Source of the DNA: Dehalococcoidia bacterium
GTDB taxonomy: Bacteria > Chloroflexota > Dehalococcoidia > Lucifugimonadales > UBA3495
DNA length: 64,000 bases
Assembly (NCBI GenBank): GCA_965203835.1
Contig: OZ241919.1
Coordinates: 596,188 to 660,187, forward strand
Reading direction: 5' to 3'
Position numbers and translations under genes: made by a program. Below, piece by piece: positions 10,399 through 40,016 of this stretch (position 1 is the stretch's first letter; each line of letters begins with the position of its first letter). Below the pieces are notes generated by a model. It did not search any database, was not told where the DNA came from, and saw only the letters and a list, made by a program, of their open reading frames with translations.

Positions 10399-10411
10399 AA
10401 GGAGGTATCTA

Positions 10412-13458: not shown

Positions 13459-13470
13459 GTCGTTTCCTCC

Positions 13471-13868: not shown

Positions 13869-14087
13869 GGGGAGAAAGGGTTGCGCCGTGGGGCAACGCC
13901 GTAACCGGCGATGACAAAGCGCAGAGCGCAACGAAGAGCGCCGCCGTGCCATCGGAGAACGACAGAGGCAGCGGAGAGAGGGAGGTCGGCTAAGCCAGGG
14001 AACGCCGGAGTTCATAGTCCGCGCAAACCCGGCGATGGCAATGAGCGAGGAACGGGGAGAGGGAGGGCTGCGCGGCCGGGGAACGCT
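13869..14087. repeat. Three imperfect direct repeats GGGGAGAG(A/G)GAGGG-N8-12-GGG(G/A)AACGC
   Basis: Copies at 13869-13900, 13971-14006 and 14052-14087, spaced roughly 80-100 bp. They lie in a ~1.2-kb stretch with no convincing ORF. Confidence 0.5.
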
Positions 14088-14739: not shown

Positions 14740-15623
14740 CTAATCCCACCACGCCCCCAGGGTGAGGATCCGCCTGATCCAACGCAGCAGCGTGCGTTTC
14801 CTGATGGACACCTGGGTGCGGTACAGCGCCTTCCAGCGCCAGCGGGTGTGGTCCCCCGGGCCAAGCCCTTCACCGGCTGCAGCGCCGGCGGCACGGTCAA
14901 CTCGTGCTCTTCAAACATGGCCAACTCCAACGTCAGCAGCCGCTCCTGGTCCTCCAGCCAGGACAGGCTGCGGCCCCGGACGGGATGCCGGTCCTTGAGC
15001 TTGCGCCACTCCTGCACCAGGGGCCAGGCATCGCCGTAGACCTCCGGGTCGTCCTCGGCGGGTTGGCGGGTTACCATCTCCGGGTCCACGCGACGGCGGC
15101 GTGCCGGCCTGCCCGGTTTCAACCCCGCCACCGGCGGCGCCGTGGGCGTTACCGAGGCCGGGGTGTTTGCGTTGCCGCTTTCGGCCTCCGCCCCAGTCTG
15201 AGCCTCCCCTGTGTTCCCGCCGTCGCCGTCAGCGTCGCCGCGCACAACGTCCCGTCCCCCACCGGCCAACGGAGCCACGGGCAAAACATCGCCGCCCCTT
15301 TCCTCCAGGGCCGCCACACGCTCCGCCAGCCGCTCCACCTCCCCGCGCAGCCGCGCCACTTCAGAATCGCCGCCCGCGCCCAGCAGCAGTTCCAGGGCGT
15401 CGGCCACTCGCCCGGTGACCCGGTCCTCGTCCAGCGCCCGCGCCACGGTCTTGTAGTTCACCCCCAGCAGGGCCGCCGCCTCCATCCGTCCCTGCTGCCG
15501 CTCCAGCTCCCGCAGGAACCCCATCAGCTTGACCTCCCGCAGCCGCTCCACGTCCCCGTCCACGCCACCCGCACCGGCGCCATCCCCCGGCTGCGTCCCG
15601 TCCAACTCGCGCTCATCCATCAT
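14740..15623 (-). CDS. Hypothetical HTH/coiled-coil protein, apparent 1-nt frameshift near 14853-14857
   Basis: ATG at 15623 after GAGGAGG. HTH-like AAALLGVNYKTVARAL. Downstream of a C5 run, high third-position GC moves to another frame, which ends at TAG 14740 (...DHTRWRWKALYRTQVSIRKRTLLRWIRRILTLGAWWD). The uninterrupted ORF runs to 14700 with a low-complexity tail. Confidence 0.6.
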
Positions 15624-15644
15624 TGACCTCCTCGCCTTACCGTC

Positions 15645-15963
15645 CAATAGGGGGCTTGTCCTGTAGGGGGCCTTCCCGCTCCCCAACCAACCCCTTCCCC
15701 CCGATTGCTCTCTCCGATAGGGCTGGACGCTCACTTCCCAAAAGGGAAATGGCCCTGGCGTTTCCGGAACCGGCCCTCACCCCCAAGTGCTCGCCAATAG
15801 GGGATTCCGGCCCGGTTTCTTCCATCGGTTTTGAGTTCAAAAGGGCCGGAAAGTTCCCAAAAGGGAACTGACCCCAATCCCTGTACACGGGTATCACATC
15901 ACATCCGGCCCAATTCCTCCTATTCCCTATAAGGGAGGACGCCGGAGACCCTCCCTGTAGGGA
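15645..15963. promoter_or_regulatory. Motif array in a divergent intergenic region: six (A/G)TAGGG(G) sites plus two TTCCCAAAAGGGAA sites
   Basis: CCAATAGGGGG 15645; CTGTAGGGGG 15661; CCGATAGGG 15714; TTCCCAAAAGGGAA 15735 and 15854; CCAATAGGGGA 15794; CCCTATAAGGGA 15925; CCCTGTAGGGAA 15952. Confidence 0.45.
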
Positions 15964-16073
15964 ATTGGATTCCGCCCCCCGGCTTCCCACACTCGGTTGA
16001 GGGCGAATGCCCCCGGGACCGCCAACCGGCGGTCCCAAAACCCGGACATTCCGACGACATGGAGGCAGAATTT

Positions 16074-18745
16074 ATGAATATCAGCATCAGGAACATCTTC
16101 CTGGGCAACCAGCGGAAGAAGGAGCCGGTCCTGCTGTCCGTCACGCCGCCCCGCGACGGCGAGCGCACGCTTTTGGGCGTGGAGAACCTGCTGGCCTCCA
16201 TCGCCGTCCCCGAACCCTTCTCCCTGGAACTGGCCGGGGACGCCAACGGCGTCAGCCTCCTGGCCCGCTGCCTGGACGACCAGGTGGTGCGGGGGCAGAT
16301 CGCCGCCCGCTACCCCCAGGCCCGCATCACCACCCTTGAACCCGACGACGACCCGTTGCGGTTGCAGGACGGGGAGCAGGCGTGGGGCATGACGCTGCGG
16401 GCGGGAGGCCCGGAATACGCCCCGCTGCGCACCTTCCGGGATGACGACCTGCTGGACGCCGGCTCCGACCCCCTGATCGCCATCATCGGGGCGCTGTCCA
16501 GCCTGAACGACGGGGAGCGGGTGGTGGCCCGGCTGCTGCTGCGGTCCCTGGGACCGGAGTGGTCCCTGGTCCACCAGCAGAAGCTCCAGCGCCAGCAGCA
16601 GACGGGAACCGGCCAGACCGTCACCAACACCCAGGCGACCCAGGCCCAGATCAGCACCAAGGACGGCGTAACCCTGGCCATCCTGGGCGTGGCCGCCCTG
16701 GTGGGACTGCGGGGCTACCTGTGGTACCAGGACGGCGAACTGCTGAAGGCGTCGCTGCTGGGTTTGGGTACGGCCCTGGGGCTGGTTCTGGCCGGCTGGG
16801 GCTGGTGGCGCTGGAGACAGGCCCGCAGCCGGGTCTACGACCCCTTGATGATCAAGGAGAAGACCTCCCGCATCGCCTTCGACGGCGAGATCCAGCTCAC
16901 GGCCATCCTGCCCGAAAGCGCCGGTCCCGACCGGGCCAACGAACTGCTGGGGCCGGTGTCCGCCGCCTACCGCACTACGACAATCCCGCCGGGGCCAGGT
17001 TCCGGGTGGGCAAGGTCAAGCCCGCGTTGCCCGGCGCCCACCTGCACCCGGCCGGGCCGGGGCTGTTCGGGAGGCGCAGCGTCCTGGGGGTGAGAGAGGC
17101 CGCCGGCCTGTGGCACCCGCCGGGAGCCAGGGACGAGACGCCCCTGGTGGCCCGCGCCGGGTCCAGGGCGCTCTTGCCCTCGGCACGGGGCACCAGCGGC
17201 GGCGCCCTGGTGGGCGAGACCACCACCGGCCCGGCCAGGAAGATCCACTTTCCCCAGGACCTGCTGCGCCGCCACCACCTCTACGTGGCCCGCACCCGCA
17301 TGGGCAAGTCCACCCTGATGGAGCACGTCATCGCCCACAAGCTGAGGGAGAAGGCGGCGGGCAACGACCACGACGCCATCATCGTCGTGGACCCCCACGC
17401 CGACCTGGTGGGCAGCGTGCTGGGGCAGGTGCCCGAGAGCCTGGTCGAACAGGTGAAGCTCATCGACCTGGCCGACAAGCGGGGCTTTCCCGGCATCAAC
17501 CTGCTGGACACCCGCATCTTCGCCGACCGGGACCGCACCGCCGACTCGGTGGTGCGGGTGGCCCACGGCCTGTGGGAGCAGTGGGAACCGAGGATGCAGT
17601 CCATCCTGGAGCACGCGGTCAAGAGCCTGCACGAGGCCAACGGGAAGCGGACGCCGGAAAGCCAGTACACCATCATCGACGGACTGAGGCTGCTGGGCGA
17701 CGACGACTTCCGGGACGAGGTGATGGCCCAGGTGGACGACCACCACCTGCTCAGGTGGTGGGCAAGGGAGTTCGGGACCTGGCGCAAGGACTACCAGGGC
17801 ATGGCCCTGGCCCCGGTGCAGACCCGCCTGGCCTACTACGCATCGTCCAGGACGGCCCGGGCCATCCTGGGCCAAGCCCGCTCCAGCATCGACCTGCGGG
17901 AGACCATCCAGGGTGGCGGCATCCTGCTGGTGTCTACCGCCCAAGGCGCCGTGGGCCGGGACGTGGCGGCCCTGGTGGGCTCCTCCATCCTGAACCTGGT
18001 GGACGGGGTGATCCGGGAGCAGGGCAGCCTGCCGCCGGAGCAGCGGCGGGGCGCATTGGTCGTCGTGGACGAGATGCAGACCATGCCTGGCGTGGACTAC
18101 GAGTCCATGCTCAGTGAGCTGGGCAAGTTCGGGGCCAACTTCATCCTGGCCACCCAGAGCCTGGCCAAGCTGGAGGACCTGTCCCGCACCATGCGCGACA
18201 CCGTGCTGGCCAACGTGGGCTGCCTGGCCGCCTTCCAGATGGCGGGTACCGACGCGCGGCAGTTGGTGTGGGAGCTGGGCAAGGAACGGGTCAGCGAGGA
18301 CGACGTCACCTCCCTGGACGTGCACCAGTGCTACGTGCGGGCAACCGTGGGCGTCGAGCGCATGGACGCCTTCTCCATGCGGGTGCTGCCGCCGGAGCCG
18401 GGTGACCCGCAGGTGGCACAGCGCATCCGGGACCTGGCCCTAGGCTACCTGACGCCCGTGGACGATATCGGCCCCCAGGACGACGAGATGGGCAAGCTGG
18501 TGGAGAAGTACCGCCAGGAACTGGCGGAACTCCGGCAGGGACCGCGCCGCCGGAAGGAGAACCAGGCCAGCCCTCCGGCCCAGCCCAAGGCCAACAACCG
18601 GCGCAACCAGCGCAGCCGGCGGCAGGGGCACCCCGCACCAGGAACGGAGGCAGAGGCGGAAGGGGAGCAGGATAACGAGGAAGGGAGCGACGGTTGGGAA
18701 GAGGGCAGCGGTGAGCCGGACGGCGAGGGGGAGGGGGAGGAATGA
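16074..18745 (+). pseudogene. TraD/VirD4-like type IV coupling ATPase, interrupted by an apparent 1-nt frameshift at ~16971-16975
   Basis: ORFs 16059..17093 and 16559..18745 join into one sensible protein (...VSAAYR|HYDNPAGARFRVGKV...). Two N-terminal TM helices, Walker A ARTRMGKST, Walker B ALVVVDEMQ. GGAGG SD before the ATG at 16074. Could be a sequencing error rather than true decay. Confidence 0.75.
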
Positions 18746-20436
18746 CGCGGACGATGAACCGGAGCCAGGGAGAGCTGCTGCGCCTTCTGGCCCGGATGCC
18801 CTTCCTGGACCGGCTGGAAATGGCTGCCCTGGCCGGGCGGTCCAGGGGCGGGGTCTACGAGGCGGCTGACCGTCTGGAGGACGCCGGACTCGCCGCCTCC
18901 GTGCCCCACGGCACGCCCCTGCTGGCCTCCACCCGCCGGTACTACCTCACCGAAAAATGCGTGAACGCGCTGGGCCAGGAGGAGGTCCAGCCAGTGGCAA
19001 GCCTGCTACGCGAATATCCGCTGTCGCTGCGCTGGCGCCGCGTGCTGCTGGAACGGCTGGACACCGCCGCCGTCATCTACCGCCTGGCCTCCGCCCTGGC
19101 CGGCCTGGGCCACCCCGCCGGCTTCCGCTGGCACCGGGCGCTGCCCCAGGACGCAACCGTAATGCTCCCCGGTGATCGCGTCCTTGCCATCGTGCGGCAG
19201 GGTTCGACCGCCGAGCGCGCCGGTTTCGCCAAGCGCCTCTGGCGGCTGGCCCAGGGTCCCCGGCCAGGGGCTTACTTGGTAATGGTCCCCGATGAGGTGC
19301 GGCTGCGCCAGGCCCGCGAACTGCTGCGCGGCGTCCGCGCCCCGGCATCCTCGGCCCCGGCCCTCTTCGCGCTGGAGCGCCACGTCGCGGCGGCCGGCGG
19401 GGACGATCCGGTATGGCGGTCACTCTCGTCGGGCGCCGGCATATCCCTCGCCGAGGCCGTGGCCCGCGCCAATCCCGGCGGCGTGATGGCGACCGAGCCG
19501 CCCCTGCAACGGGTCTCACTACCCAGGGACATCGACACCGGGGAACTGGACGGGGGCGACGGGGGCGAAGGCGTCCCCGGCCACCTGCTGCCGGTCCTGT
19601 TGCGGTCCGCCGAAAAGCGCGCCCTGGACCTGCTGGCCGACTGGCCTTGGCTGGCGCGGCAGGATCTGGCCGGGCTGCTGAACGTTTCCAACTCCGGGGC
19701 GTCCCACCTCACCGGCGCCCTGGCACGCTTTGGGTTGGTGGCCGCCGTCCAGCGCGACAGCCGCCGCCTGGCCCTCACGGATAGGGGGCTGAAACTGCTG
19801 GCCCGCCGGGACCGCGTTTCCACCGGCGAGGCCCGGCAGCGCTGGAGCGTCAGCACTGACGACGGCGAGGACGACGGCAACCGGCCAACCGTATCCGGCC
19901 GGCGCAGCCGCCAACTGCTCCGGGACCTGGAGCACACCGCCGCCGTCCACCGCTTCATCGCCGCCCTGAACCGCCAAGCCCAGGGTCTCGGCTGGAATAT
20001 CGAGCAACTGGACCCGCCCCACCGGGCCTCCCGCTACTTCCGCCACTACGGCGGCCCCCTTTCCCTGCATCCCGACGCCTTCGGAACGTTGCGCCGCAAT
20101 GACCTGCTGCGTTCCTTCTTCCTGGAGTACGAACGCCGCGCCGTGCGCCCCGCCACCATGGCCCAGCGCCTGGCTCCCTACCTGCGCTACTACTCCTCCC
20201 ACCGGCCCGCCGACGACCATGGCCAGAGGCCCCTGGTCCTGGTGGTCTTCGATGATCCCGTCGCACCCACCCATTTCCTGGAGGTGGCACGGAGGGAGAT
20301 GGAGCGCGTTCGCGTGCCGCTGCCTCTGCTGGTTTCCCACCGGGAACTGCTGCAACGGGAGGGGCCGCTGGGTTCCGCCTGGCTGGCGCCGGACGGCGAT
20401 TTCCGGCCGGTTCAACCTCTGCACCGCTACCAGTGA
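18742..20436 (+). CDS. Replication-relaxation (Replic_Relax) family protein
   Basis: 564-aa ORF whose start overlaps the T4CP stop (ATGA). wHTH-like N-terminal repeats. C-terminal block HTAAVHRF...LHPDAFG...FFLEYERRA is typical of the family. Confidence 0.7.
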   Translation: MTRTMNRSQGELLRLLARMPFLDRLEMAALAGRSRGGVYEAADRLEDAGLAASVPHGTPLLASTRRYYLTEKCVNALGQEEVQPVASLLREYPLSLRWRRVLLERLDTAAVIYRLASALAGLGHPAGFRWHRALPQDATVMLPGDRVLAIVRQGSTAERAGFAKRLWRLAQGPRPGAYLVMVPDEVRLRQARELLRGVRAPASSAPALFALERHVAAAGGDDPVWRSLSSGAGISLAEAVARANPGGVMATEPPLQRVSLPRDIDTGELDGGDGGEGVPGHLLPVLLRSAEKRALDLLADWPWLARQDLAGLLNVSNSGASHLTGALARFGLVAAVQRDSRRLALTDRGLKLLARRDRVSTGEARQRWSVSTDDGEDDGNRPTVSGRRSRQLLRDLEHTAAVHRFIAALNRQAQGLGWNIEQLDPPHRASRYFRHYGGPLSLHPDAFGTLRRNDLLRSFFLEYERRAVRPATMAQRLAPYLRYYSSHRPADDHGQRPLVLVVFDDPVAPTHFLEVARREMERVRVPLPLLVSHRELLQREGPLGSAWLAPDGDFRPVQPLHRYQ

Positions 20437-20517
20437 AACGCCAACGGGGCCGGACGGTTTATTCCGTCCGGCCCCGTCATATTCGGGAAACTCCTTGCGC
20501 CCTGGTCAGTCCTGGAC

Positions 20518-20829
20518 TTACGTGTGCGCGGCGCTGGCCTCGCTTTCGGCATCCAAGTCAGTATCAACCTCCGGCTCTCCCGCCTCGGGCAGCAGGTGGT
20601 GGAGCAGCCCCAGCCGGGCGGCCAGGGCGAACAGCGACACGAGGTGGCCGGAGCCGACCCGGGAGCCGGCCTTCCAGCGCCTCACCGTTTCGGCATTGAC
20701 CCGCAGTTCCCGGGCCAGGCCCCGCCAGCTAAACCCGGCGGCCTGCCGGAAGCGGTCCATCCGGTCGGAAAAGTCCGCCGGGAACTCCTGGGGCTCCGTG
20801 TGGTAGACGTACTGCTGACGGCTTCCCAT
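20518..20829 (-). CDS. Small HTH protein (paralog family 1 of 3 genes)
   Basis: Block AGFSWRGLARELRVNAETVRRWKAGSRVGSG is shared with the 20833 and 21332 ORFs. Confidence 0.6.
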   Translation of the reverse strand: MGSRQQYVYHTEPQEFPADFSDRMDRFRQAAGFSWRGLARELRVNAETVRRWKAGSRVGSGHLVSLFALAARLGLLHHLLPEAGEPEVDTDLDAESEASAAHT

Positions 20830-20832
20830 CCT

Positions 20833-21360
20833 TCACCTCCGGTATGGCCAGGGTTCGTCGGAGTCCCGCAGCAGCACCTCGACGCCGCCCCGCACCGTGC
20901 AAGCCCACTCCAGGATGGCCCGCATTTCGGCGGCGGTGGGCACGTCGTAAAAGCGCAGCCGGTTGGCCCGCTCCAGGGGCAGACCCCACCGGCGGGTGAA
21001 GTCCTCCATGGACACGCCGGTGCGGTCCTCCAACCGCCCCAGCCGCACCCACCAGTCCTCGGGCAGGGGCGGCGGCGGATAGCCCTTGCTCAGGCTGGGC
21101 TCGTAGTTGTCGTTGTCGAAAGTCATGGGCGATTCCTCCTTGGTTTTCTTGGGGCGGTTCTGCGCGAGGTTCCCAGCGACGGCATCCCGGTTGGAGCCAG
21201 GGCCGGATAAACCGGCGCGGTGATTGACGCCGATGCGGGCCGCCAACCCCCGCCAGGTCAGGCCGCACTTTTCCTGCAAACGCTCCAGCCCTCCACCGAC
21301 GCGCTCCGCCGGCAATGGGGAAAAGGCGTCGTCAATAGGCGATCTTCCTTCCTTGGTCAT
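20833..21360 (-). CDS. Double-module HTH protein (paralog family)
   Basis: N-terminal module CGLTWRGLAARIGVNHR and C-terminal module TGVSMEDFTRRWGLPLERANRL. An internal in-frame ATG at 21126 has a strong AAGGAGGAA SD, so a shorter 97-aa product is also possible. Confidence 0.55.
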   Translation of the reverse strand: MTKEGRSPIDDAFSPLPAERVGGGLERLQEKCGLTWRGLAARIGVNHRAGLSGPGSNRDAVAGNLAQNRPKKTKEESPMTFDNDNYEPSLSKGYPPPPLPEDWWVRLGRLEDRTGVSMEDFTRRWGLPLERANRLRFYDVPTAAEMRAILEWACTVRGGVEVLLRDSDEPWPYRR

Positions 21361-21664
21361 GGTTCCACCTCCCAGGTTGATGGATTACGATCACGTCCTC
21401 GTCCGTAAGCAGAGCCAGGCCACCGGGCACCCACAGGGCCAGGCGCACCAGGGCCAGCATGGCGCCCCCGTTGGGCTGCACCCCGTGCCGCCGCCAGCGC
21501 CACAGCTGGCGGCTGTCCACCCCAATGGCCGCCGCCATCCCCTCCCACGAGAGGCCGGTCGGGCGCTTGATGGCCTCCAGCTTCTCCCGGAAGTCCTCCG
21601 GCAGCAGGGCCACGCCCGGCGGTATCACAATGGGCGTCTTCATATTCGCGGGGGAGCTACTCAT
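21332..21664 (-). CDS. Small HTH protein (paralog family)
   Basis: Block TGLSWEGMAAAIGVDSRQLWRWRRHGVQPNG. Overlaps both neighbouring genes, giving compact operon packing. Confidence 0.6.
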   Translation of the reverse strand: MSSSPANMKTPIVIPPGVALLPEDFREKLEAIKRPTGLSWEGMAAAIGVDSRQLWRWRRHGVQPNGGAMLALVRLALWVPGGLALLTDEDVIVIHQPGRWNHDQGRKIAY

Positions 21665-21899
21665 CGACCCGCTCCAGGACGAAGAGAACGTTGAAGTCGG
21701 TGACGCCCAGGGCGTCCATCAGGCGCTGGCGCACCCCGGGCGAGGCGAAGCGCTCTCCGCTCATCAGCTGGGACATGTAGCCCGACCTGATGCCGGCCCG
21801 GCGCGCCAGCTCGTTCTGGCTCATGTTGAGCCGGTTCAGCAGCTCCCACACCACCTCGGTGCGCAGCCTGGACCTGAAACAGGGCTTCCTGCGTTTCAT
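21657..21899 (-). CDS. XRE-family HTH protein
   Basis: 80-aa ORF with NMSQNELARRAGIRSGYMSQLMSGER. AAGGAGG SD. ATGA overlap with the upstream ORF. Confidence 0.75.
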   Translation of the reverse strand: MKRRKPCFRSRLRTEVVWELLNRLNMSQNELARRAGIRSGYMSQLMSGERFASPGVRQRLMDALGVTDFNVLFVLERVDE

Positions 21900-22168
21900 T
21901 CGGCTGCCTCCTTGTGGGAAAGGTCTCCATCGGCCCGCGCGACGGCGTTGACCATGGCATCGTCCTTGCCGACGTCCCCACTTCCGCCGTCGATGGTGCC
22001 GGTAGGAACGGGGTACAGTTCGGGGTGGGCCAGGTAGTGGCGGACGATGACGCGGGCCAGAGCCCGCAGGCCATCCATCCTCTGTCGCTCCTGCTCACCG
22101 GTAAGTCTTGGCCTGGTACTCAAGGGAAACGTCTCTCCGTTGCCGCCGCATATCATTTCCCGTGTCAT
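21896..22168 (-). CDS. Hypothetical protein, first gene of the leftward HTH operon
   Basis: ORF 21896..22327. The start is unclear (ATG 22168, 22156 or 22078); third-position GC is only high from about MDGLRALARVIV onward. Confidence 0.4.
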   Translation of the reverse strand: MTREMICGGNGETFPLSTRPRLTGEQERQRMDGLRALARVIVRHYLAHPELYPVPTGTIDGGSGDVGKDDAMVNAVARADGDLSHKEAAE

Positions 22169-22298
22169 CCGGGGATTGGCCGGGGACCGGCCGGTGGGGT
22201 ATACTGGGCAGCAATTACGATTGGATGTTCTACTTGCTAGAGTGTAACAATCAGCAAACCAGATAGACAAGGACTCACTGCCACTAACGCACTGTTTC

Positions 22299-22328
22299 TT
22301 GACTGATTGCTCGCTGTGATGTAACAAT
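22299..22328 (+). promoter_or_regulatory. Sigma70-like promoter candidate for the XRE/ImmA operon
   Basis: TTGACT at 22299-22304, 18-nt spacer, AACAAT at 22323-22328. Lies in the only AT-rich patch of the element. Confidence 0.4.
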
Positions 22329-22332
22329 AATG

Positions 22333-22354
22333 CGACAAGAATCCGACAAGAATC
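22333..22354. repeat. Perfect 11-bp tandem direct repeat CGACAAGAATC x2 (operator candidate)
   Basis: Located just downstream of the candidate -10. In addition, the 9-bp TGTAACAAT occurs twice, at 22243 and 22320. Confidence 0.5.
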
Positions 22355-22409
22355 TGACTATTATCCCGTAGACTGGGAGCAGCAGACTGCGGGAAAGGAG
22401 GGAAGCATC

Positions 22410-22847
22410 ATGGGCGAGCCTGACCAACACCAGTCTGGCCCAACCGATGGGGAGGCAGAACTGTACGGCAACGAGGAGATCGGCCCCCTACTGAGAAGGC
22501 TCAGGAGACCCCTCAGCCTGAGAGACGTGAACCGCCGCACCGGGGTCTCCGGCTCCTACCTCTCCCAGATCGAAAACGGAGAGCGCAAGCCCGGGGCCAA
22601 CATCGTGCGCAAGCTGGCCGCCCTCTACCGGGTGGACCCCGACGAACTCCTGAAGCGGGCCGGCCACGGCCCCAGGCCCGACCCCCACGGCGACGAGACC
22701 CTGGAGGTGGAGCGGGCCTACCGCTACGTGCTGGACGACCCCAACTTCAGGGTGGGAACCCGGCCCGACGGCCCCCTGTCCCTGAACGCCAAGCGGTTCA
22801 TCGTGGAGATGTACGAGAAACTAACCGGCAAGAGGCTTTTGGAATGA
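22410..22847 (+). CDS. XRE-family transcriptional regulator
   Basis: HTH LSLRDVNRRTGVSGSYLSQIENGERKP. SD AAAGGAGGGAAG. Stop overlaps the start of the downstream ImmA-like gene. Confidence 0.85.
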   Translation: MGEPDQHQSGPTDGEAELYGNEEIGPLLRRLRRPLSLRDVNRRTGVSGSYLSQIENGERKPGANIVRKLAALYRVDPDELLKRAGHGPRPDPHGDETLEVERAYRYVLDDPNFRVGTRPDGPLSLNAKRFIVEMYEKLTGKRLLE

Positions 22848-23782
22848 ACGAAACCCTGGGCGGCTTCTGCCGCGACCTGCTGGATGAACACCATTGTTGC
22901 CCAGGCCAGGAACCCAGCCTGGAGGCCGTCGCCGCCCGCTTCGTGGAACGCTTCGGTGTGTCAGCCCGGCCTAACCTGGAGGAACTCAAGGCCCTGCTGC
23001 GCGACGCCGGTTTCGGGGAGGTGGTGGAGATGAGCATGGAGGGCAGTCCCAAGGGACTGCACGTGGGGATCGCGGGGCAGGAGTGCCACATCTACTACAA
23101 GGAAGAGTTGTGGCAGGGCGCCAGGGACTACACCGTGCTCCATGAGAGCTACGAGATCATGCACGAGACCCTGTGCGACCTGGCCACGGGAACCAAGGCG
23201 GAGCAGGAGGTGTGCCGGGAGGCGAACCGCTTCGCGGCGGGTGTGCTGATGCAGCCGGGGGAGTTCCGGGAGTTGGCCCTGGCGTTGGGACTGGACGTGA
23301 TCGCCCTGCAACGGGAGTACCGCTACGCCTACGCTGCCGTGACCATGAGACTCACCGAGGTGGTGCGCAACTTCCCCTACTCCGTGGTCCTCTACGAGCG
23401 TCCGGGCCGCACCGACCCGGCGATGTGGCCCAGGGGAGACGACCTGGCCGCGCTGCGGGCCACGGTGGTCCGGCGGACCAAGGGCATGGGGCCTCCCGCC
23501 TCCAAGCTCATCACCGGAAAGCGGGGCGGCATTCCCCAGAGGTACAAGCGGGTGCCCGCCGGGTCCCTGGCGGAGCGGGCGGCCCGCACGGGCGAGCCGG
23601 AGTACGCTGAGGCCGACGGTCTGGCCGTGGTCGCCAGGTCCGTCCGCTGGAAGGGGCGTCTGGCCAAGCTGGCGGTGGTGGCCGTGCCATTGGAGTTCCG
23701 GGCGGTGCTGGCCCCGCAGTTGGGCCGGCGGAGGCAGACCCGTCCCTTGACCAACCCCAGGGCGCTGACCGCCACGTCTTGA
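22844..23782 (+). CDS. ImmA/IrrE (M78)-like metallopeptidase domain protein
   Basis: Classic XRE + ImmA gene pair. Downstream family block EANRFAAGVLMQP is present. The zinc motif is non-canonical: LHESYEIMHE instead of HEXXH. Confidence 0.7.
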   Translation: MNETLGGFCRDLLDEHHCCPGQEPSLEAVAARFVERFGVSARPNLEELKALLRDAGFGEVVEMSMEGSPKGLHVGIAGQECHIYYKEELWQGARDYTVLHESYEIMHETLCDLATGTKAEQEVCREANRFAAGVLMQPGEFRELALALGLDVIALQREYRYAYAAVTMRLTEVVRNFPYSVVLYERPGRTDPAMWPRGDDLAALRATVVRRTKGMGPPASKLITGKRGGIPQRYKRVPAGSLAERAARTGEPEYAEADGLAVVARSVRWKGRLAKLAVVAVPLEFRAVLAPQLGRRRQTRPLTNPRALTATS

Positions 23783-23852
23783 CCGATGGGGCCGGATGCC
23801 GGATAATAATAGTAAGACAAACACTTATCCCACGAGGCAAAAAAAGGGGACT

Positions 23853-24083
23853 ATGCCGCCACGCCGCAAATCCAGGACCATCACCTTCTCGCTGCCGCCG
23901 GAGATGTACCAGGAGGTGCAGCGGGTCAAGGAAGAAGAGGGCCGCGACATGAGCGAGCTGGTGCGGGAAGCCCTGCGTTTGTACATGGAAGACCGGGAAC
24001 TGCGCCGTGAGCAGCGCCTGGAACGGCTGCGTTCCCGGCAGGCTGTACCGGAGACAAATGAACGAGGTGAGAGCAATGAGTAG
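23853..24083 (+). CDS. Ribbon-helix-helix (CopG-like) protein
   Basis: MPPRRKSRTITFSLPPEMYQEVQRVKEEEGRDMSELVREALRLYM matches an RHH beta-alpha-alpha pattern. Overlaps the recombinase start by 8 nt. Confidence 0.7.
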   Translation: MPPRRKSRTITFSLPPEMYQEVQRVKEEEGRDMSELVREALRLYMEDRELRREQRLERLRSRQAVPETNERGESNE

Positions 24084-25716
24084 GAATACCGACCTGGCCC
24101 CGGTGGCCCTGTACGCCCGGGTGTCCAGCGACCGCCAGGACGTGGACCTGTCCGTGGCCGCCCAGCTTCGGGCCTTGCGAGACTACGCCGACAAGAACGG
24201 CTACCTGGTGGTCCGCGAGTTTGTCGACGAAGCCGAGAGCGGGCGCATAGCCGATAGGCCCCAGTTCCGCAAGATGCTGGACGAGGCCGGCAAGCCGGAG
24301 GCCCCTTTTAGCGAGATTTTGGTCTGGAAATTCTCTCGCTTCACCCGCAAGCGGGAACACGCCGTGGCTTTCAAGTCCATGCTCCGGCGCAAGGGCATCC
24401 GCGTCGTGTCCATCACCGAGCACGCCGACGACACCCCCACCGGCAAGCTCATGGAGGCCATCATCGAGTCCGTGGATGAATTTTACTCGGAAAATTTAGC
24501 TCAAGAAGTGACGCGGGGAATGCGGGAAGCCGCCTCCCGGGGCTTTTGGATGAACGCCAGCGCCCCCTACGGCTACCGGCGGGTCTACGTCCAGGACGGG
24601 GCCAAGAAGCGGCCCCGGCTGGAACTCAACCCGCCCCACGACGCCGTGGTCCGCCGCATCTTCGACCTCACCCTCCAGGGCCGGACCTCCCTGGACATCC
24701 TCAAGACCCTGAACGCCGAGGGCATCCCCTCCCCCAAGGGCAGGCAGTGGCGCAAGACGACCGTTCACAAGGTGCTGACCAACGAAGCCTACACGGGCAG
24801 CCTTGTATGGGGCCAGAAGGCCAGGGACGGACAGGAGCCGGTTCGCGTGGAGAACGCCTTCCCCGCCATCGTGTCAGCGGACGAGTTCGACCGGGCCAGG
24901 AGGCTGTTGGAGTCGCGGGCGCCCAAGGTGACCCACCCCCGCCGCGCCGCCAATCCCTACCTGCTCAGTGGGTTGGCCAAGTGCGAGTCCTGCAACAAAG
25001 CCCTCACCGCCGCCGAGGCCAAGAGCGGCAAGTACACCTACTACGTCTGCCAGTCTTTGCTCAAGCAGGGCAGCGGGTCCTGCGACACCCCCAGGCTGAA
25101 CGCCAAGAACTTCGAGGGCATCATCGTCTCCAACATCCGTGAGAACATTCTCACCGAGTCCAACGTCCGCGACCTGGTGCGGCTGGTGGACGAGGAGATG
25201 GACGGCATCGCCCGTGAACAGCGGCAGAACCTGGAAACCATCGAGGCCGAACTGGAAGAGGTGAAGCGGAAGCTGGACCGCATCTGGCACTTCGTCGAGA
25301 GCACCGACCTGGACATGGCCGACGCCTCGGAGCGCATCCTGGAACACCGCCACCGGCGGGAGCAACTGGAAGCCGCCGCCGAGGAAGCGCGGGCTGTGCT
25401 GTCCCAGCGGCGGGAATTGCTGGACAGCGCCGACGTAATCGCCGCCTTCGCCCGAGACATGAGCGAGTTTCTCAAGACCAGCGAACTCACCGAGACCAAA
25501 GCCTTCGTGCGGTCCTTCGTGAAGGAGGTGCTGGTGCGGCCCGGCGGGGCGACGATTATCTACACGATCCCCACGCCGGAAGATAGTCCCATAGGGGGCA
25601 AGGACGCTGCTGAAATCGCCTTGGATGGCGGAGTTCGCAGTAATAGATACGGTGGTGGAGGTGAGGGGAATCGAACCCCTGGCCCCCTGCGTGCAAAGCA
25701 GGTGCTCTCCCGCTGA
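24076..25716 (+). CDS. Large serine recombinase (integrase)
   Basis: Catalytic block ALYARVSSDRQ. Recombinase domain. Zinc-ribbon cysteines CESC...YYVC...GSC. Coiled-coil C-terminal region. GAGGTGA SD. The ORF stops 64 nt inside tRNA-Ala. Confidence 0.9.
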   Translation: MSRNTDLAPVALYARVSSDRQDVDLSVAAQLRALRDYADKNGYLVVREFVDEAESGRIADRPQFRKMLDEAGKPEAPFSEILVWKFSRFTRKREHAVAFKSMLRRKGIRVVSITEHADDTPTGKLMEAIIESVDEFYSENLAQEVTRGMREAASRGFWMNASAPYGYRRVYVQDGAKKRPRLELNPPHDAVVRRIFDLTLQGRTSLDILKTLNAEGIPSPKGRQWRKTTVHKVLTNEAYTGSLVWGQKARDGQEPVRVENAFPAIVSADEFDRARRLLESRAPKVTHPRRAANPYLLSGLAKCESCNKALTAAEAKSGKYTYYVCQSLLKQGSGSCDTPRLNAKNFEGIIVSNIRENILTESNVRDLVRLVDEEMDGIAREQRQNLETIEAELEEVKRKLDRIWHFVESTDLDMADASERILEHRHRREQLEAAAEEARAVLSQRRELLDSADVIAAFARDMSEFLKTSELTETKAFVRSFVKEVLVRPGGATIIYTIPTPEDSPIGGKDAAEIALDGGVRSNRYGGGGEGNRTPGPLRAKQVLSR

Positions 25717-25727
25717 GCTACACCCCC
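25653..25727 (-). tRNA. tRNA-Ala (anticodon UGC), CCA encoded
   Basis: Hand-folded cloverleaf. Acceptor GGGGGTG/CACCTCC with the G3:U70 alanine identity pair. Anticodon loop TTTGCAC. T-arm AGGGG-TTCGATT-CCCCT. 3' ACCA. Confidence 0.92.
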
Positions 25728-34804: not shown

Positions 34805-35137
34805 ATGGTAACAGTTGAGGTCTTCGTCGGGGCTTGGCTATCCTTGATCCTTTTGGGCGCCGGAGCTTTCTACTGGGTGATGTCGGAATTCCGGGCGTTG
34901 CGAACGGAAATTCGGGCAACTCGCGAGGAACTGCACCAGGAAATTCGGGCAACTCGCGAGGAACTGCACCAGGAAATCCGGGCAACTCGCGAGGAACTGC
35001 ACCAGGAAATCCGGGAGGAATCTCAAGAACGCCGGTCGGATACCCAGCGCATATTGGAGGCGCTTTATTTCCATCGCCACGATTCCGACGGTGCAGCCAT
35101 ATTCTACCCGCCCACACAGACCCCACAAGCAGACTGA
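34805..35137 (+). CDS. Small membrane-anchored coiled-coil protein with 11-aa repeats
   Basis: N-terminal TM helix followed by EIRATREELHQ x3, encoded by a 33-bp DNA tandem repeat. Confidence 0.55.
   Translation: MVTVEVFVGAWLSLILLGAGAFYWVMSEFRALRTEIRATREELHQEIRATREELHQEIRATREELHQEIREESQERRSDTQRILEALYFHRHDSDGAAIFYPPTQTPQAD
34907..35016. repeat. 33-bp tandem repeat, about 3.3 copies
   Basis: GAAAT(T/C)CGGGCAACTCGCGAGGAACTGCACCAG at 34907, 34940 and 34973, plus a partial fourth copy. Confidence 0.9.
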
Positions 35138-35175: not shown

Positions 35176-36234
35176 TTGAGTGACATCGGTGAAACGACTG
35201 CCGTAAGCTGGGACGATGCCCTGGAAGCCATCGAACGTTGCTACGAACTCGGGTGGACCGACGGCCTTCCGGTGGTCCCTCCGACGGAGCAACGGGTGGC
35301 GCAATTCTTGGAACACAGCGGTCGTCCGGCGTCGGAGGTCGTCGGGGAACTACCGGAGCGGCGCAGGGAAATCACCGTGGGCAAAGTGGCCGCCAACGCG
35401 GTTATGGCCGGGTGCCTGCCCGAATACATGCCGGTAGTGCTGACCGCCACTTCCGCAATGCTCGACCCCACCTTCAACCTCATCGGCCCTTCCTCCAGCA
35501 TGGGCGGCGCGGGCATACTGGTCATAGTAAACGGCCCAAAGACCCGGGAGTTGGGCATCAACTCCCGCAACAACCTATTCGGGCCGGGCAACCGGGCCAA
35601 CGCCACCATCGGAAGGGCCATCAGGCTGATCCTGATGAACGCCTGCGCGTCCATCCCCGGCCTGTTCGACCGCAGCGTCATCGGGCATCCGGGCAAGTAC
35701 AGCTATTGCATCGCCGAGGCTGAAGCGGATACCCACTGGAATCCTCTGCACGTAGAGCGGGGATTTGCCGCCGAGCAAAGCACGGTAACGGTGTTTGCAT
35801 CCGAGGGACCACGCCAGGTCCGTGCGGTAGGGCATCCGAACGCAATACTGGATAGCATCGTTGACGCCGCCTCCACCCTGGGAACAAGCATGTCCATGAC
35901 CGGCTCCGTGGGAGACCGGCACGACGATATACGGCAGGGACAGATCGCAGTGACCATTGCCGGCAACTCCAGGCTGTGGCAGGACTGGACCAAGAAACAG
36001 GTGCGGGAGTACCTGCACAACCGCATCCGCCGCTCGGTGGCCGATTTGAAGAGGGTACACGGCTTGCCGGGAGACCTGGAAAGCGGCGACGAAGACAGCT
36101 ATGTATCGTTGATTCCGACCCCGGATGACATACTCTTGGTGTTCGCTGGCGGCGAAGAGTCCAACGCTGCGTCGGTAATACCGAGTTGGGGCCCCAAGAT
36201 AGGCTCCACGGCGGTGACTCACGAGATAAAATAG
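35176..36234 (+). CDS. Conserved hypothetical protein upstream of the UGSC selenoprotein gene
   Basis: 352-aa ORF with a TTG start after AGGAG. No family I can name with confidence. Confidence 0.6.
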   Translation: MSDIGETTAVSWDDALEAIERCYELGWTDGLPVVPPTEQRVAQFLEHSGRPASEVVGELPERRREITVGKVAANAVMAGCLPEYMPVVLTATSAMLDPTFNLIGPSSSMGGAGILVIVNGPKTRELGINSRNNLFGPGNRANATIGRAIRLILMNACASIPGLFDRSVIGHPGKYSYCIAEAEADTHWNPLHVERGFAAEQSTVTVFASEGPRQVRAVGHPNAILDSIVDAASTLGTSMSMTGSVGDRHDDIRQGQIAVTIAGNSRLWQDWTKKQVREYLHNRIRRSVADLKRVHGLPGDLESGDEDSYVSLIPTPDDILLVFAGGEESNAASVIPSWGPKIGSTAVTHEIK

Positions 36235-36308
36235 GTGCCGGTCAACGAATACCCTCCAAGTTGACGGCCCGTCCCAACGTTACCCAAGCAAGGTTTCAGG
36301 AGGTCAAA

Positions 36309-36854
36309 ATGACCCAGACCAATGAGTACACCCTGGTAAATCCCACGACCCAAGCCATAGTGGCCCCATTCGACGGCGCGCCCCGTCTGCCGACCTTGGC
36401 GGGCACCACGGTGGGCATCATCGACGACTGCAAGCCCAACGCCGACGTGCTGCTGGAGGAATTGGTTGAAGTCCTCCGCACCCGGTACGAGATTTCCGAC
36501 GTTCGCTGGCACCGCAAGACCAGCGCCTCCAGGCCCGCGGTGGCCGAGGCAATCAAGGAGTTGGCGGAGAACTGCGACTCGGTGATTGTAGGGGTGGGTG
36601 ATTGAGGGTCCTGCAGTGCGTGCAGTGTGCACGACGGAATTCACGTAGAGAACGCGGGCATCCCTTCAGCCACCATTTGCACCGACCGGTTCATCCCCAC
36701 CGCTGAGGGAATGGCCAAGATGTGGGGCGCTCCCGATTACCCCACGATTTTCACCCAGCATCCCATCGAGAACCTGAACAGGGACCAGATACGCCAGCGG
36801 GCCGAGGACTTGGCCCCCAAGGTGGTCAGCATCCTCATCGGCGACAATCTGTAG
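36309..36854 (+). CDS. UGSC-family selenoprotein (in-frame TGA = Sec at 36603-36605)
   Basis: ORFs 36186..36605 and 36627..36854 are in the same frame with only one TGA between them. Context is GVGD-U-GSCSACS. AGGAGG SD before the ATG at 36309 and none before the GTG at 36627. Hairpin starts 11 nt after the TGA. Confidence 0.7.
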
Positions 36855-37057: not shown

Positions 37058-37246
37058 TTAGCCCTGTACCCGCATCTCCGGCGGCAACAGGTTGGGTATA
37101 GAGTCGTCAATGGGGTAAGTCTCGTCACACTTGTGGCAAGCCAATCCGCCCCTTATCACGTCGTCGCCCTCTTCCTCCTCCACGCTCAACTCCAGCTCGC
37201 CCTTGCAGACCGGACAGGCCAGTATCTCCATCAGTTCCTTTTTCAA
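37058..37246 (-). CDS. Trm112 family protein
   Basis: 62 aa. LACPVCKG...CHKC zinc-ribbon pattern and IPNLLP tail, typical of Trm112/DUF343. Confidence 0.85.
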   Translation of the reverse strand: MKKELMEILACPVCKGELELSVEEEEGDDVIRGGLACHKCDETYPIDDSIPNLLPPEMRVQG

Positions 37247-37269
37247 ACCGCCTCCAGGAATCCGTCAAC

Positions 37270-37752
37270 TTAACCGGAAAGGCCCCACTCGAACAGGGCG
37301 TCCAACACGTCCGACAGGCCGATTATCAGCACTCCGTAGATTAGTAACGCGGTGGGCCCGGTGAGCCTAGATCGTGCTTTGGCAAACCAGCCGGTCCACG
37401 ACTCCGCGTCTCCGGGATAGACGCCGGGGCGAAGGAACCGCACCACGTAGAACATGTACAAGGCCAGCGCGACCTTGATGACAAGCGCAGCGACGTAAGG
37501 AGCCGTAACCGCGCTGTCGGTAAGCCGGCTTACCGACAGGATAACTCCCGTCAGCAACAATACTGCTATCGCAGTATTGACCACCCCCCGGAACTCCTCG
37601 CCGATGGCCCTGTTAGCCTCCGCGTTGCTATTGGAACGCCGCAACGCCGGTCGCAGCACCAGCAGGTAAAATATGCCGCCGCCCACCCAAGCGACGGCCG
37701 CCAGGGCGTGGGCCCAGCGAATAGCCACCAGAATCCAGTCTAGGACGTTCAT
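37270..37752 (-). CDS. Integral membrane protein (about 4 TM helices)
   Basis: Hydrophobic-helix pattern. Likely start is MNVLDW at 37752. Function unknown. Confidence 0.55.
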   Translation of the reverse strand: MNVLDWILVAIRWAHALAAVAWVGGGIFYLLVLRPALRRSNSNAEANRAIGEEFRGVVNTAIAVLLLTGVILSVSRLTDSAVTAPYVAALVIKVALALYMFYVVRFLRPGVYPGDAESWTGWFAKARSRLTGPTALLIYGVLIIGLSDVLDALFEWGLSG

Positions 37753-37802
37753 AAAGTGTGGGCCGGCTTGCGGCGCCCCAGTATCCAATAGGCAAACATG
37801 GG

Positions 37803-38333
37803 CTAGCCCGTAGGCATCTCACGGATGATGCTGCCGAGCTTTTCCGCGTCCAGGGTGCTTATGTCAGTCCGGTAAATCCTGCCCGACCTGTCAATGAATA
37901 TGCTGGTTGGGTAGTACATTATCTCGTAAGCCCGGGCTATTTCCCCTCGGACATCCGTCGCGAAGTCGTAGGTCAATCCCAACTCCTCTATGAAATCCCT
38001 CGCGTCCTGCTCCGAATCAAATCCCTGGGGCACGAACAAACCGAGAAATCGTATATCGTCGCCCTGCACTCGCTCCCACGCCCTCTGAAATCCGGGCATC
38101 TCCGCCCGGCAGGGAGGGCAGGACGGGAACCAGAAGTTGAGGACTACCGCCCGTTGACCGGCGTCGTCGGATAACCGGAAGGGACTGCCGTCGAACAGCG
38201 TAACCTCGAAATCAGGTGTTTGCGACCACGTCCTTTCAATAAAGCCACATGACGTGGTCAACATCCCAACACACAGAAGGACTCCCCACAAGGCGGGATG
38301 AAAGCTTGCTTTGAAGTGGGACCACCGTAACAT
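37803..38333 (-). CDS. TlpA-like thiol:disulfide oxidoreductase (thioredoxin fold)
   Basis: N-terminal membrane anchor. Redox motif FWFPSCPPCRAEMP. Confidence 0.85.
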   Translation of the reverse strand: MLRWSHFKASFHPALWGVLLCVGMLTTSCGFIERTWSQTPDFEVTLFDGSPFRLSDDAGQRAVVLNFWFPSCPPCRAEMPGFQRAWERVQGDDIRFLGLFVPQGFDSEQDARDFIEELGLTYDFATDVRGEIARAYEIMYYPTSIFIDRSGRIYRTDISTLDAEKLGSIIREMPTG

Positions 38334-38476: not shown

Positions 38477-39229
38477 ATGCGTTTGGAGAATAAAGTGGCG
38501 TTCATCAGCGGCGGGGCCAGGGGCATGGGCGCCGTCGAAGCCAAGCTGTTCAGCAGCGAAGGCGCCAAGGTGGTTATCGGCGACATTCTGAACGAAGACG
38601 GCCGGCGCACCGAGGCCGAGATCAACGAGGCTGGCGGCGAGTGCCTCTTCGTTCACTTGGATGTAACCAGCGAGTCTAGTTGGCAGGAAGCCATAGCTGC
38701 TGCCGTGGGTCGGTTCGGCAAGCTGGACGTGCTGGTCAACAACGCCGGCATCTTCCGCACCGAGGGCGTCCTGGAGACCAGCGAGGCCCTGTGGGACGAG
38801 ATGCTGGAAATCAACGGAAAGGGCGTATTCCTGGGCACAAAGTGCGCCATCCCGGAAATGCGCAAGGCCGGCGGCGGCTCCATTATCAACATCTCATCCG
38901 TGGCAGGCTTGGTGGGAGGGCCGGGATCGGCAGCCTACAGGACCTCCAAGGGCGCGGTGCGCTTGTTTACCAAGGCGACCGCAATCCAGTATGCCGGAGA
39001 GGGCATCCGGGCCAACTCGGTGCATCCCGGCATCATCGAAACACCCATGACCACTCCCAACCTTCTGGCGGATGAGGCCGCCCGGCAGCGGGCCATCGCC
39101 CGTGCTCCCTTGGGCAGGTACGGTCAGCCGGAAGACGTGGCCTATGGAGTACTGTACTTGGCCAGTGACGAATCTTCTTTCGTCACCGGCAGCGAACTGG
39201 TGATTGACGGCGGCGTTACTGCCCAATAG
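38477..39229 (+). CDS. SDR family oxidoreductase (copy 1)
   Basis: GGARGMG cofactor motif, NNAG, and the S...YxxxK catalytic pattern (AAYRTSKGA). Confidence 0.9.
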   Translation: MRLENKVAFISGGARGMGAVEAKLFSSEGAKVVIGDILNEDGRRTEAEINEAGGECLFVHLDVTSESSWQEAIAAAVGRFGKLDVLVNNAGIFRTEGVLETSEALWDEMLEINGKGVFLGTKCAIPEMRKAGGGSIINISSVAGLVGGPGSAAYRTSKGAVRLFTKATAIQYAGEGIRANSVHPGIIETPMTTPNLLADEAARQRAIARAPLGRYGQPEDVAYGVLYLASDESSFVTGSELVIDGGVTAQ

Positions 39230-39269
39230 GGGCCGTACAGAGTCGTCATCTACGGCATGGAGGCCGGAT

Positions 39270-40016
39270 ATGCGCTTGGAGAATAAGGTTGCTTTCATCA
39301 GCGGCGGCGCCCGGGGGATGGGCGCGGTGGAAGCCAAGCTCTTCGCCCAGGAGGGCGCCAGGGTCGTCATTGGAGACATCCTGGATGAGGAGGGCCGCAA
39401 GACCGAAGCCGAGATTAACGAGGCGGGCGGTGAGTGCTTGTTCGTTCACTTGGACGTGACCAGTGAGGCCGAGTGGCAGCAGGCCATCGACGCCACCGTT
39501 GCCAGGTTCGGCAATCTGGACATACTGGTCAACAACGCCGGAATCTTCCGCAGCGAACGGGTGGAGGAGATAAGCGGCGAGTTGTGGGACCAAGTGATGG
39601 AGATCAACGTCAAGGGCGTGTTCCTGGGGACCAAGGCCGCTATCCCCGAGATGCGCAAGGCCGGAGGCGGCTCCATAATCAACATCTCCTCCGTTGCCGG
39701 TCTCATAGGAGACGTTATCTCGGCGGCATACACCAGTTCCAAAGGGGCGGTCAGGTTGTTCACCAAGTCTACCGCCATTCAATACGCGCCCGACGGCATC
39801 CGGGCCAACTCCATCCACCCCGGCACCATCGACACGCCTATGACTGCCGAAATGCTGCTCGGCTGGTACCGCGACGACCGCATCAACCGCACGCCCCTGC
39901 GCCGCATAGGCACAGCCGAGGACGTGGCCTACGGCGCCCTGTACCTGGCTTCCGACGAGGCTTCCTTCGTCACTGGCGCCGAACTGGTTATAGACGGCGG
40001 GCGGACGGCCGAATAG
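39270..40016 (+). CDS. SDR family oxidoreductase (copy 2, tandem paralog)
   Basis: Same motifs as copy 1. The N-terminal 25 residues are identical to copy 1 and similarity is high throughout. Confidence 0.9.
   Translation: MRLENKVAFISGGARGMGAVEAKLFAQEGARVVIGDILDEEGRKTEAEINEAGGECLFVHLDVTSEAEWQQAIDATVARFGNLDILVNNAGIFRSERVEEISGELWDQVMEINVKGVFLGTKAAIPEMRKAGGGSIINISSVAGLIGDVISAAYTSSKGAVRLFTKSTAIQYAPDGIRANSIHPGTIDTPMTAEMLLGWYRDDRINRTPLRRIGTAEDVAYGALYLASDEASFVTGAELVIDGGRTAE

Follow-up and report, generated by a model that had tools for sequence, protein, structure and literature searches.

The UGSC gene and its reading frame

We analyzed a 64-kb stretch of DNA from a Dehalococcoidia bacterium (contig OZ241919.1, positions 596,188 to 660,187; referred to here as the window), in which a gene at positions 36309-36854 is interrupted by one in-frame TGA. 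An initial annotation had interpreted this gene as encoding a selenoprotein of the UGSC family, with selenocysteine (Sec) at the TGA. The present analysis deals with this gene, the hairpin that follows its TGA and the gene directly upstream. The features of the locus are as follows.

35176..36234, plus strand: 352-aa partner gene with a provisional TTG start at 35176; it has an 'Unknown_1'-like domain and is without a Pfam or NCBIfam family
36298..36303, plus strand: Shine-Dalgarno (SD) motif AGGAGG, with a spacer of 5 nt to the ATG at 36309
36309..36854, plus strand: predicted UGSC family selenoprotein gene of 181 codons including Sec99, with the stop TAG at 36852-36854
36600..36602, plus strand: Asp codon before the UGA, GAT in all 81 SAR202-type sequences (see below)
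36603..36605, plus strand: UGA predicted to be read as selenocysteine, the U of the U-G-S-C motif; the TGA is conserved and is replaced by Cys in Cys-type homologs
36612..36614, plus strand: TGC codon for Cys102, which forms the last residue of UGSC and is probably the resolving cysteine; its conservation among 89 family members is at least 90%

Translation of 36309-36854 encountered one internal stop only, the TGA at 36603-36605. The open reading frames (ORFs) on its two sides, 36186..36605 and 36627..36854, lie in the same frame in the ORF listing, and the listing and the translation together confirmed the initial view of two ORFs in one frame split by a single TGA. The strong SD sequence that had been assigned to the ATG at 36309 was indeed present. 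A separate second product would have to start at GTG 36627, and inspection of the window sequence found no GGAGG-like motif ahead of this codon, in agreement with the initial annotation. Around the TGA the fused product reads ...SVIVGVGD, then the TGA codon (Sec in the reading adopted here), then GSCSACSVHDGIHVENAG..., and the predicted Sec-spanning stretch is ...VGVGD-U-GSCSACSVHDGIHVENAGIPSATICTDR.

Family membership and homologs

For scoring with hidden Markov models (HMMs), the fused product was used with the TGA translated as Cys. It scored 160.4 bits with NF041046 "UGSC family (seleno)protein" (cut-off 125; residues 32-176) and 198.8 bits with Pfam PF24696 "UGSC" (cut-off 25; residues 9-177), the latter as one domain across the TGA, and the proposed family identity was thus borne out by both curated cut-offs. 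A profile search with the two window halves and database hits yielded 2322 clusters at 50% identity (E <=1e-3). Among the best 149 of these 2322 clusters, the Sec column held Cys in 116, typically as GD-C-GSC; the CGSC homologs with Cys at the TGA column that had been expected were therefore found when the alignment was run. Seventeen of the 149 best representatives end exactly before the Sec column. Moreover, about 70 of the 76 nearest database relatives were 100-residue products ending in ...GD, indicating that gene callers had stopped at the TGA, and one database product (P0074) starts with MHDGIHVEN, i.e. the second piece was called separately. Gene finders commonly split genes of this type. 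With ~70 of the 76 closest entries cut at the TGA, the family is systematically mis-annotated in Dehalococcoidia/SAR202, and the appropriate annotation here would be one selenoprotein gene rather than two hypothetical proteins.

The column of C99, like that of C102, was at least 90% conserved across the 89 family members. Some UGSC subfamilies are without the second Cys and read C-G-T-S or H-C-G-A-S, and one Sec-type gene (L085:2666-2710) reads U-G-S-S. Since the second Cys has been lost in whole subfamilies, the first (Sec/Cys) position is the essential, conserved catalytic one. We also noted a 206-aa homolog on a 790-bp contig (P0001) with Arg at the Sec position (VGVGD-R-SSCSACS). Its Arg codon would be CGA or AGA, one base off TGA; either Sec has truly been lost in this homolog, or the Arg is a variant that arose in sequencing or assembly. 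In addition to the fusions described below, a second type of UGSC fusion of ~275 aa was observed (P0211, P0223, P0227, P0242 and P0343; also P0289 and P0328), in which the UGSC domain is followed by a ~90-residue domain with a conserved C-x-x-C-(M/V/L)-P, whose sequence is reminiscent of NifU-like redox domains.

The 'UGSC-containing protein' was catalogued as a selenoprotein family by Zhang and Gladyshev in 2008 (PMC2398784); for Global Ocean Sampling (GOS) they counted 255 Sec versus 21 Cys forms, and they described fusion, in some organisms, to an unnamed conserved domain termed 'Unknown_1'. A 2026 review (PMC13188914) lists the family with NF041046, its functions being largely uncharacterized. 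The UGSC family, its Sec/Cys dimorphism and a fusion partner have thus been reported earlier, and the window gene is a further member of a family already known before 2008, which standard NCBI rules name. It has in common with NF041046/PF24696 the scores above the HMM cut-offs and U-G-S-C at the same column, and with the family as portrayed in PMC2398784 the mostly Sec and fewer Cys forms and the aquatic or marine bacterial hosts; nothing sets it apart from the family. In Dehalococcoidia/SAR202 it occurs as a stand-alone protein of 181 aa, the gene for which follows a separate partner gene. From the GOS survey onward, members of the family have been abundant in metagenomes of aquatic origin.

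Conservation of the TGA and of the frame beyond it

One genome per species was scanned for relatives that align over both halves of the gene. This gave 80 loci, all from metagenome-assembled genomes (MAGs) of Dehalococcoidia/SAR202, and together with the window 81 SAR202-type sequences. The closest relative, OY761541.1, has 86-88% DNA identity over ~20 kb of shared gene order. Six distant Sec-type genes, recovered through split gene calls, came from one deltaproteobacterial MAG, two Methylomirabilota MAGs and three contigs without a recorded organism, and brought the number of Sec-type sequences to 87. All 81 SAR202-type sequences had TGA at the site, where neither TAA nor TAG nor any sense codon was observed; TGA also stood at the same codon in 6/6 distant genes, i.e. 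in 87/87 Sec-type genes in total. An SD-like motif and an ATG were present 97-98 codons upstream of the TGA in 78 of the 81 orthologous loci. The frame after the TGA was open for 80-86 codons in all 81 and ended with TAG or TAA in 78 of them. Over these codons the amino acids were conserved while synonymous change was free, a pattern of purifying selection, and we therefore conclude that the C-terminal half is translated. The Asp codon before the TGA was always GAT, whereas GAC is preferred elsewhere in the gene (76%). We regard this GAT as a clade-level feature because the six distant Sec-type genes carry GAC or CAC at this codon.

These observations bear on the possibility that the TGA is a real stop, in which case the locus would encode a 98-aa protein and a separate 75-aa protein from GTG 36627, or would be a decaying pseudogene. 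Nearly all public records are annotated in this manner (100-aa products; P0074), and the machinery for Sec decoding was not seen in the window. However, a pseudogene would not keep the TGA, the open frame and purifying selection in 80 species, and neither TAA nor TAG ever occurred at the site. Furthermore, the seven codons that separate the TGA from the GTG show perfect conservation at both the protein and the DNA level, the GTG is not preceded by an SD sequence, one Pfam domain extends across the stop and the Cys-type homologs are continuous. We consider termination at this codon to be extremely unlikely.

Among the 30 family-supported genes of the window, six end with TGA as a normal stop, indicating that TGA is not reassigned genome-wide and that the recoding is site-specific. 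When the window and the loci were scanned for other genes in which coding signal flanks an in-frame TGA on either side, whether or not a GU-loop hairpin was required, only the UGSC gene was found; the remaining hits were singletons in non-coding frames.

A conserved hairpin downstream of the UGA

The region that follows the TGA contains two overlapping features.

36618..36635, plus strand: 18-nt block GCG TGC AGT GTG CAC GAC, in which every position including the synonymous sites is invariant (81/81)
36619..36633, plus strand: putative selenocysteine insertion sequence (SECIS) core hairpin CGUGCA-GUG-UGCACG, with a stem formed by 36619-36624 and 36628-36633

We identified the block by a codon-by-codon analysis of the 81 sequences over 117 columns that have a conserved amino acid and a degenerate codon; no other single result carries as much weight. 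The median codon entropy over these columns was 1.41 bits, and the synonymous sites are therefore well mixed. A single codon was used in all 81 sequences at 7 of the 117 columns, namely at the GAT before the TGA and at the six consecutive columns of 36618-36635, which are placed 15-32 nt after the TGA. A run of six invariant codons was reached in one of 1,000,000 permutations. The frozen codons include rare ones, since AGT accounts for 3% of the Ser codons and GCG for 25% of the Ala codons elsewhere in the gene.

With the U of UGA as position 1, the loop nucleotides G36625, U36626 and G36627 of the hairpin are G23, U24 and G25. The hairpin at 36619-36633 alone has a folding energy of -6.3 kcal/mol and is in the same register in all six distant Sec-type genes. 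Pairing was counted in the 87 sequences, 58 of which were distinct. The six core pairs of stem 17-22/26-31 (36619-36624 with 36628-36633) were 100% paired, with one compensatory pair: pair 21-27 is C-G in the SAR202-type genes and in L086, which belongs to a different lineage, G-C in five other-lineage genes, and unpaired in none. The loop is G23 U24 R25 (GUG or GUA) across the Sec-type genes. In a small control of three Cys-type genes the hairpin was not kept, and the one of these three that encodes the same WSVHD peptide was found to use AGC and CAT codons, by which U24 and one stem pair are lost.

The initial annotation had proposed a hairpin after the TGA at 36616-36632, with 36611-36625 as an alternative fold. 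Both can be drawn, but the register that it preferred is not the conserved one. In 36616-36632 pair 15-29 was unpaired in 36 of the 58 distinct sequences, without covariation, as compared to 100% pairing for 36619-36633, and we rejected it as the SECIS element. The alternative hairpin at 36611-36625 was 95.9% paired, a level reached by 48 of 500 shuffles and hence not beyond chance, and its pair 11-21 was broken in four of the six distant Sec-type genes; it is a possible competing fold that is not supported as the conserved element. This fold is relevant to a further explanation, in which the 18 nt are frozen for a reason other than a SECIS, either as a regulatory site or because 36611-36625 is the functional hairpin. 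The alternative hairpin overlaps the invariant block, is well paired and would compete with the conserved stem. On the other hand, it leaves the invariance of 36627-36635 unexplained and would bury G23, in addition to the shuffling result and the broken pair, while the stem 17-22/26-31 is kept across phyla with a compensatory change, and in Sec-type genes only. An explanation of this kind appears quite improbable to us.

We compared the conserved hairpin with the fdhF SECIS of E. coli, using an fdhF sequence that was checked against 5419 E. coli genomes and matched 100% inside fdhF. The upper hairpin of fdhF consists of 17 nt, lies 11 nt from the UGA and has conserved U17, G23 and U24, of which U17 and G23 are the SelB-binding sites (PMC8659212). 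Both hairpins are part of a coding sequence and closely follow the UGA on its 3' side. G23 and U24 of the apical loop are equally far from the UGA in the two elements, and the 3' arm U26-G-C-A-C30 is identical in sequence and position. The window element differs in its loop of 3 nt (GUG/GUA) in place of the 4 nt of fdhF (GGUC), in being without the bulged U17 and in the extent of its conservation, which covers a stem of 6-7 bp but no lower helix.

Probable selenocysteine decoding

The comparative signal, i.e. the TGA, the open frame and the invariant codons, is far beyond chance. We consider it very probable that 36309-36854 is a single gene for a 181-residue UGSC selenoprotein, that its UGA is recoded via a SECIS element and that the protein works with the product of the upstream partner gene. 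SelB-dependent delivery is the standard bacterial mechanism of Sec insertion. By this mechanism the UGA at 36603-36605 would not be read as a stop during translation; the mRNA hairpin at 36619-36633, 14-28 nt past the UGA codon, would expose G23 and U24 in its apical loop, and SelB with Sec-tRNA(Sec) would bind this hairpin and deliver selenocysteine to the ribosome. Sec at position 99 is a predicted incorporation, and we infer SelB binding, as well as the Se-S chemistry and the complex formation considered below. The gene and its conservation suggest that the organism decodes Sec, and the result would imply selenocysteine use in the lineage. The comparatively supported SECIS core could also seed selenoprotein searches in this group.

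A number of observations weigh against this interpretation. Searches of the 64-kb window and of 1.5 Mb of related-locus flanks detected neither tRNA-Sec nor selA, selB or selD. ARAGORN detected one tRNA (tRNA-Ala) in the window and only tRNA-Ala and tRNA-Ile in the 80 loci; tblastn with E. coli SelA, SelB and SelD sequences was negative in the window and gave only weak GTPase-domain matches, in three loci, among the related loci; and the Pfam annotation of 30 window genes included no Sec machinery. The local fold of 36597-36665 was no better than that of shuffled sequences (z = 0.01), and the hairpin alone is therefore no evidence, so that the weight must come from comparison. Rfam returned no SECIS-like match for the whole window at gathering thresholds or for 36500-36750 at E <=10. 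The hairpin is short and is without the bulged U17 of E. coli, its covariation is that of a single pair, which probably represents one or two evolutionary events, and the competing hairpin at 36611-36625 is also highly paired. The hairpin codes for the peptide S-[C/W]-S-[V/I]-H-D, which is conserved in Cys forms as well; constraint on the amino acids therefore accounts for part of the nucleotide conservation, but not for that of the synonymous sites. Lastly, structure searches of the PDB gave no confident structural homolog for either the UGSC or the partner domain, and the similarity to GrdB described below is far below the family cut-offs.

The case for Sec incorporation is built on a sequence signature. 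We also considered that the UGA might be read through with an amino acid other than Sec, i.e. Cys or Trp by a near-cognate or mischarged tRNA, or by a lineage-wide reassignment. Insertion of Cys at Sec codons under selenium limitation is known in other systems. A global reassignment does not agree with the TGA that terminates 6 of the 30 family-supported window genes, and the locus has the hallmarks of SelB-dependent recoding, namely a UxxC position aligned to Cys and G23-U24 at the spacing of fdhF. The family, moreover, is catalogued as a selenoprotein family (PMC2398784, PMC13188914). We regard non-Sec readthrough as very unlikely.

The upstream partner gene and natural fusions

The initial annotation had suggested that the 352-aa gene may be a functional partner. 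We found this gene directly upstream and on the same strand in 80/80 loci, with a median identity of 76%. Because synteny among these relatives is broad, the adjacency is weakened as a sole argument. The profile search provided a second line of evidence in the form of fusion proteins (485-657 residues), which begin with a Cys-type UGSC domain and continue with a domain that shares 31-50% identity with the 352-aa protein (E 1e-26 to 1e-68). A search with the fusion alignment returned at least 120 proteins among the matches listed, nearly all of them fusions; the few with an organism name were from Beta-, Alpha- and Deltaproteobacteria and Methylomirabilota, and two are named "UGSC family (seleno)protein" by NCBI. 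In most of the listed fusions (P0350-P0450) C-G-S-C is replaced by C-G-T-S or H-C-G-A-S. Both orders of fusion were found: P0455 consists of the partner followed by UGSC and ends with ...GSGD at its TGA, while P0459, P0460 and P0462 are post-TGA parts of UGSC(Sec)-partner fusions. The adjacency in 80/80 loci and the natural fusions together strongly support the suggested partnership. In many other bacteria a single polypeptide contains both. We propose that the UGSC protein and the 352-aa protein work together, probably as two subunits of one enzyme. The fusions are probably the "UGSC/Unknown_1 fusion" of 2008.

At least 8000 homologs of the partner were scored. Cys178 was invariant and Cys80 nearly so, and conservation extended to several Arg, Lys, His and Glu residues. 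None of 70 members of the partner family matched a Pfam or NCBIfam model at E<0.1, and a sequence search of the PDB gave nothing for the UGSC protein or the partner. The combination of UGSC with a large partner family without a model or known fold points to an uncharacterized enzyme.

Predicted structure

AlphaFold2 was run on a natural Cys-type fusion, P0457 (motif GDCGSC), and not on the window protein, with 131 aligned sequences; the model was a confident one, with a predicted local distance difference test score (pLDDT) of 88.1 and a predicted template modeling score (pTM) of 0.90. In this model the UGSC domain has five beta-strands alternating with helices, and Cys106, the counterpart of Sec99, stands two residues past the end of strand 98-104 and directly ahead of helix 107-122. 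A strand-helix junction of this kind is the usual place of a redox-active selenol/thiol pair. The U-G-S-C of the window protein would occupy the same strand-helix position, with Cys102 three residues past Sec99. Foldseek searches of the PDB with the P0457 model gave weak flavodoxin-like matches (WrbA, flavodoxin and lumazine synthase; E >=2e-3), and no thioredoxin was among the best 50 PDB matches. The model thus shares with the UxxC/CxxC oxidoreductases of thioredoxin fold a predicted U/CxxC at the start of a helix preceded by a beta-strand, but differs in its five alternating strands and its flavodoxin-like matches, and a thioredoxin-like fold of the UGSC domain, as suggested earlier, was not supported. 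For the window partner (model pLDDT 86.7) the best Foldseek match in the PDB was class I fumarate hydratase alpha, with E 1.4e-3 and a template modeling (TM) score of 0.28-0.33; this was too weak to be counted as homology.

Likely chemistry and relation to selenoprotein B

The selenoprotein B group, which belongs to the glycine, sarcosine, betaine and D-proline reductases, was the only recurrent secondary family of the UGSC sequences: among the 89 members, 26 matched GrdB (TIGR01917) at E<0.01 and 9 matched PrdB. Window residues 72-160 align to model positions 319-402, which bracket Sec350 of GrdB. The scores of the window protein, 23 bits with TIGR01917 and 19 with TIGR01918, were below the respective cut-offs of 602.2 and 65.45. 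In GrdB of C. sticklandii the Sec is residue 350 of 436. In these reductases the substrate is attacked by Sec, and the resulting selenoether is resolved to an Se-S bond by a cysteine from within that protein (PMC3091704). The UGSC protein has in common with GrdB, GrdF, GrdH and PrdB (TIGR01917, TIGR01918, TIGR04483) a UxxC with Sec first, work with a second, separately encoded protein, and the recurrent weak matches of the 26 members at the Sec350 region, with only ~90 residues aligning. It differs in that its partner has no similarity to the pyruvoyl proproteins GrdE or PrdA, and its hosts (SAR202, Proteobacteria and Methylomirabilota) are not Stickland fermenters. We rejected a GrdE/PrdA-like identity of the partner, as none of the 70 members searched against NCBIfam and Pfam had a hit at E<0.1.

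These alignments suggest a remote relationship between the UGSC domain and the part of GrdB/PrdB that contains Sec, which makes Sec-initiated reduction the most likely chemistry. In such a scheme Sec99 would start the reduction of a substrate or of a partner cysteine, the intermediate would be resolved through an Se-S bond to Cys102, and a thiol system would afterwards reduce this bond. By analogy to selenoprotein B, the partner may bind the substrate on which the Sec99/Cys102 couple acts, or the couple may act on a cysteine of the partner itself.

With regard to gene neighborhoods, a family III CoA-transferase (PF02515) was found beside the UGSC-partner genes in L081, L084, L086 and L087, which are from unrelated lineages, and in the distant loci it was often accompanied by TctA/TctC transporter genes, enoyl-CoA hydratase or acyl-CoA synthetase. 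The neighbors of the UGSC gene in the window include a thiolase, a GMC oxidoreductase and short-chain dehydrogenases. These neighbors hint at a role in the metabolism of carboxylic acids or acyl-CoA and may thereby indicate the class of substrate. A broader proposal, which we offer as a rather doubtful one, is that UGSC and the 352-aa domain might form a widespread two-component or fused selenoenzyme, whose Sec module would be an offshoot of GrdB/PrdB and which would reduce a substrate of carboxylic-acid or acyl-CoA type in SAR202, Proteobacteria and Methylomirabilota. If true, a catalytic principle of Stickland type would operate in lineages that are not Stickland fermenters.

Other features of the window

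Three minus-strand genes at 37058-38333 converge on the UGSC gene.

37058-37246, minus strand: Trm112p-like zinc-ribbon protein
37270-37788, minus strand: CopD/urate-oxidase-N-like membrane protein
37803-38333, minus strand: AhpC/TSA-type redoxin with a CPPC motif

The membrane protein and the redoxin are conserved, in 72-74 of the 80 loci. The redoxin could be a reductant for the UGSC protein, or it could be unrelated.

At some distance from the UGSC gene, the region at 12277-25727 has a higher third-position G+C (0.8-0.89) and is absent from the synteny with L001-L003. This region and the one beside it contain the following features.

7-2334, minus strand: PglZ-domain protein
2331-5546 and 5521-8985, minus strand: two very large ORFs beside the PglZ gene
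10412-11158: protein similar to 3'-phosphoadenosine-5'-phosphosulfate (PAPS) reductase
12277-13917, minus strand: proteins with multiple helix-turn-helix (HTH) domains
16559-18745: TrwB-like coupling protein
18742-20436: replication-relaxation protein
24007-25716: large serine recombinase, the ORF of which runs into the tRNA-Ala
25653-25727, minus strand: tRNA-Ala

The region at 12277-25727 looks like an integrative mobile element inserted at a tRNA gene, and 7-11158 may be a defense island similar to bacteriophage exclusion (BREX) systems beside this element. Between an NHL-repeat gene and the partner gene, a small ORF at 34805-35137 has three tandem copies of REELHQEIRAT and is present in only 6 of the 80 related loci. 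Finally, two short-chain dehydrogenase paralogs at 38477-39229 and 39204-40016 overlap each other, and their near-identical N-terminal sequences suggest a recent tandem duplication.

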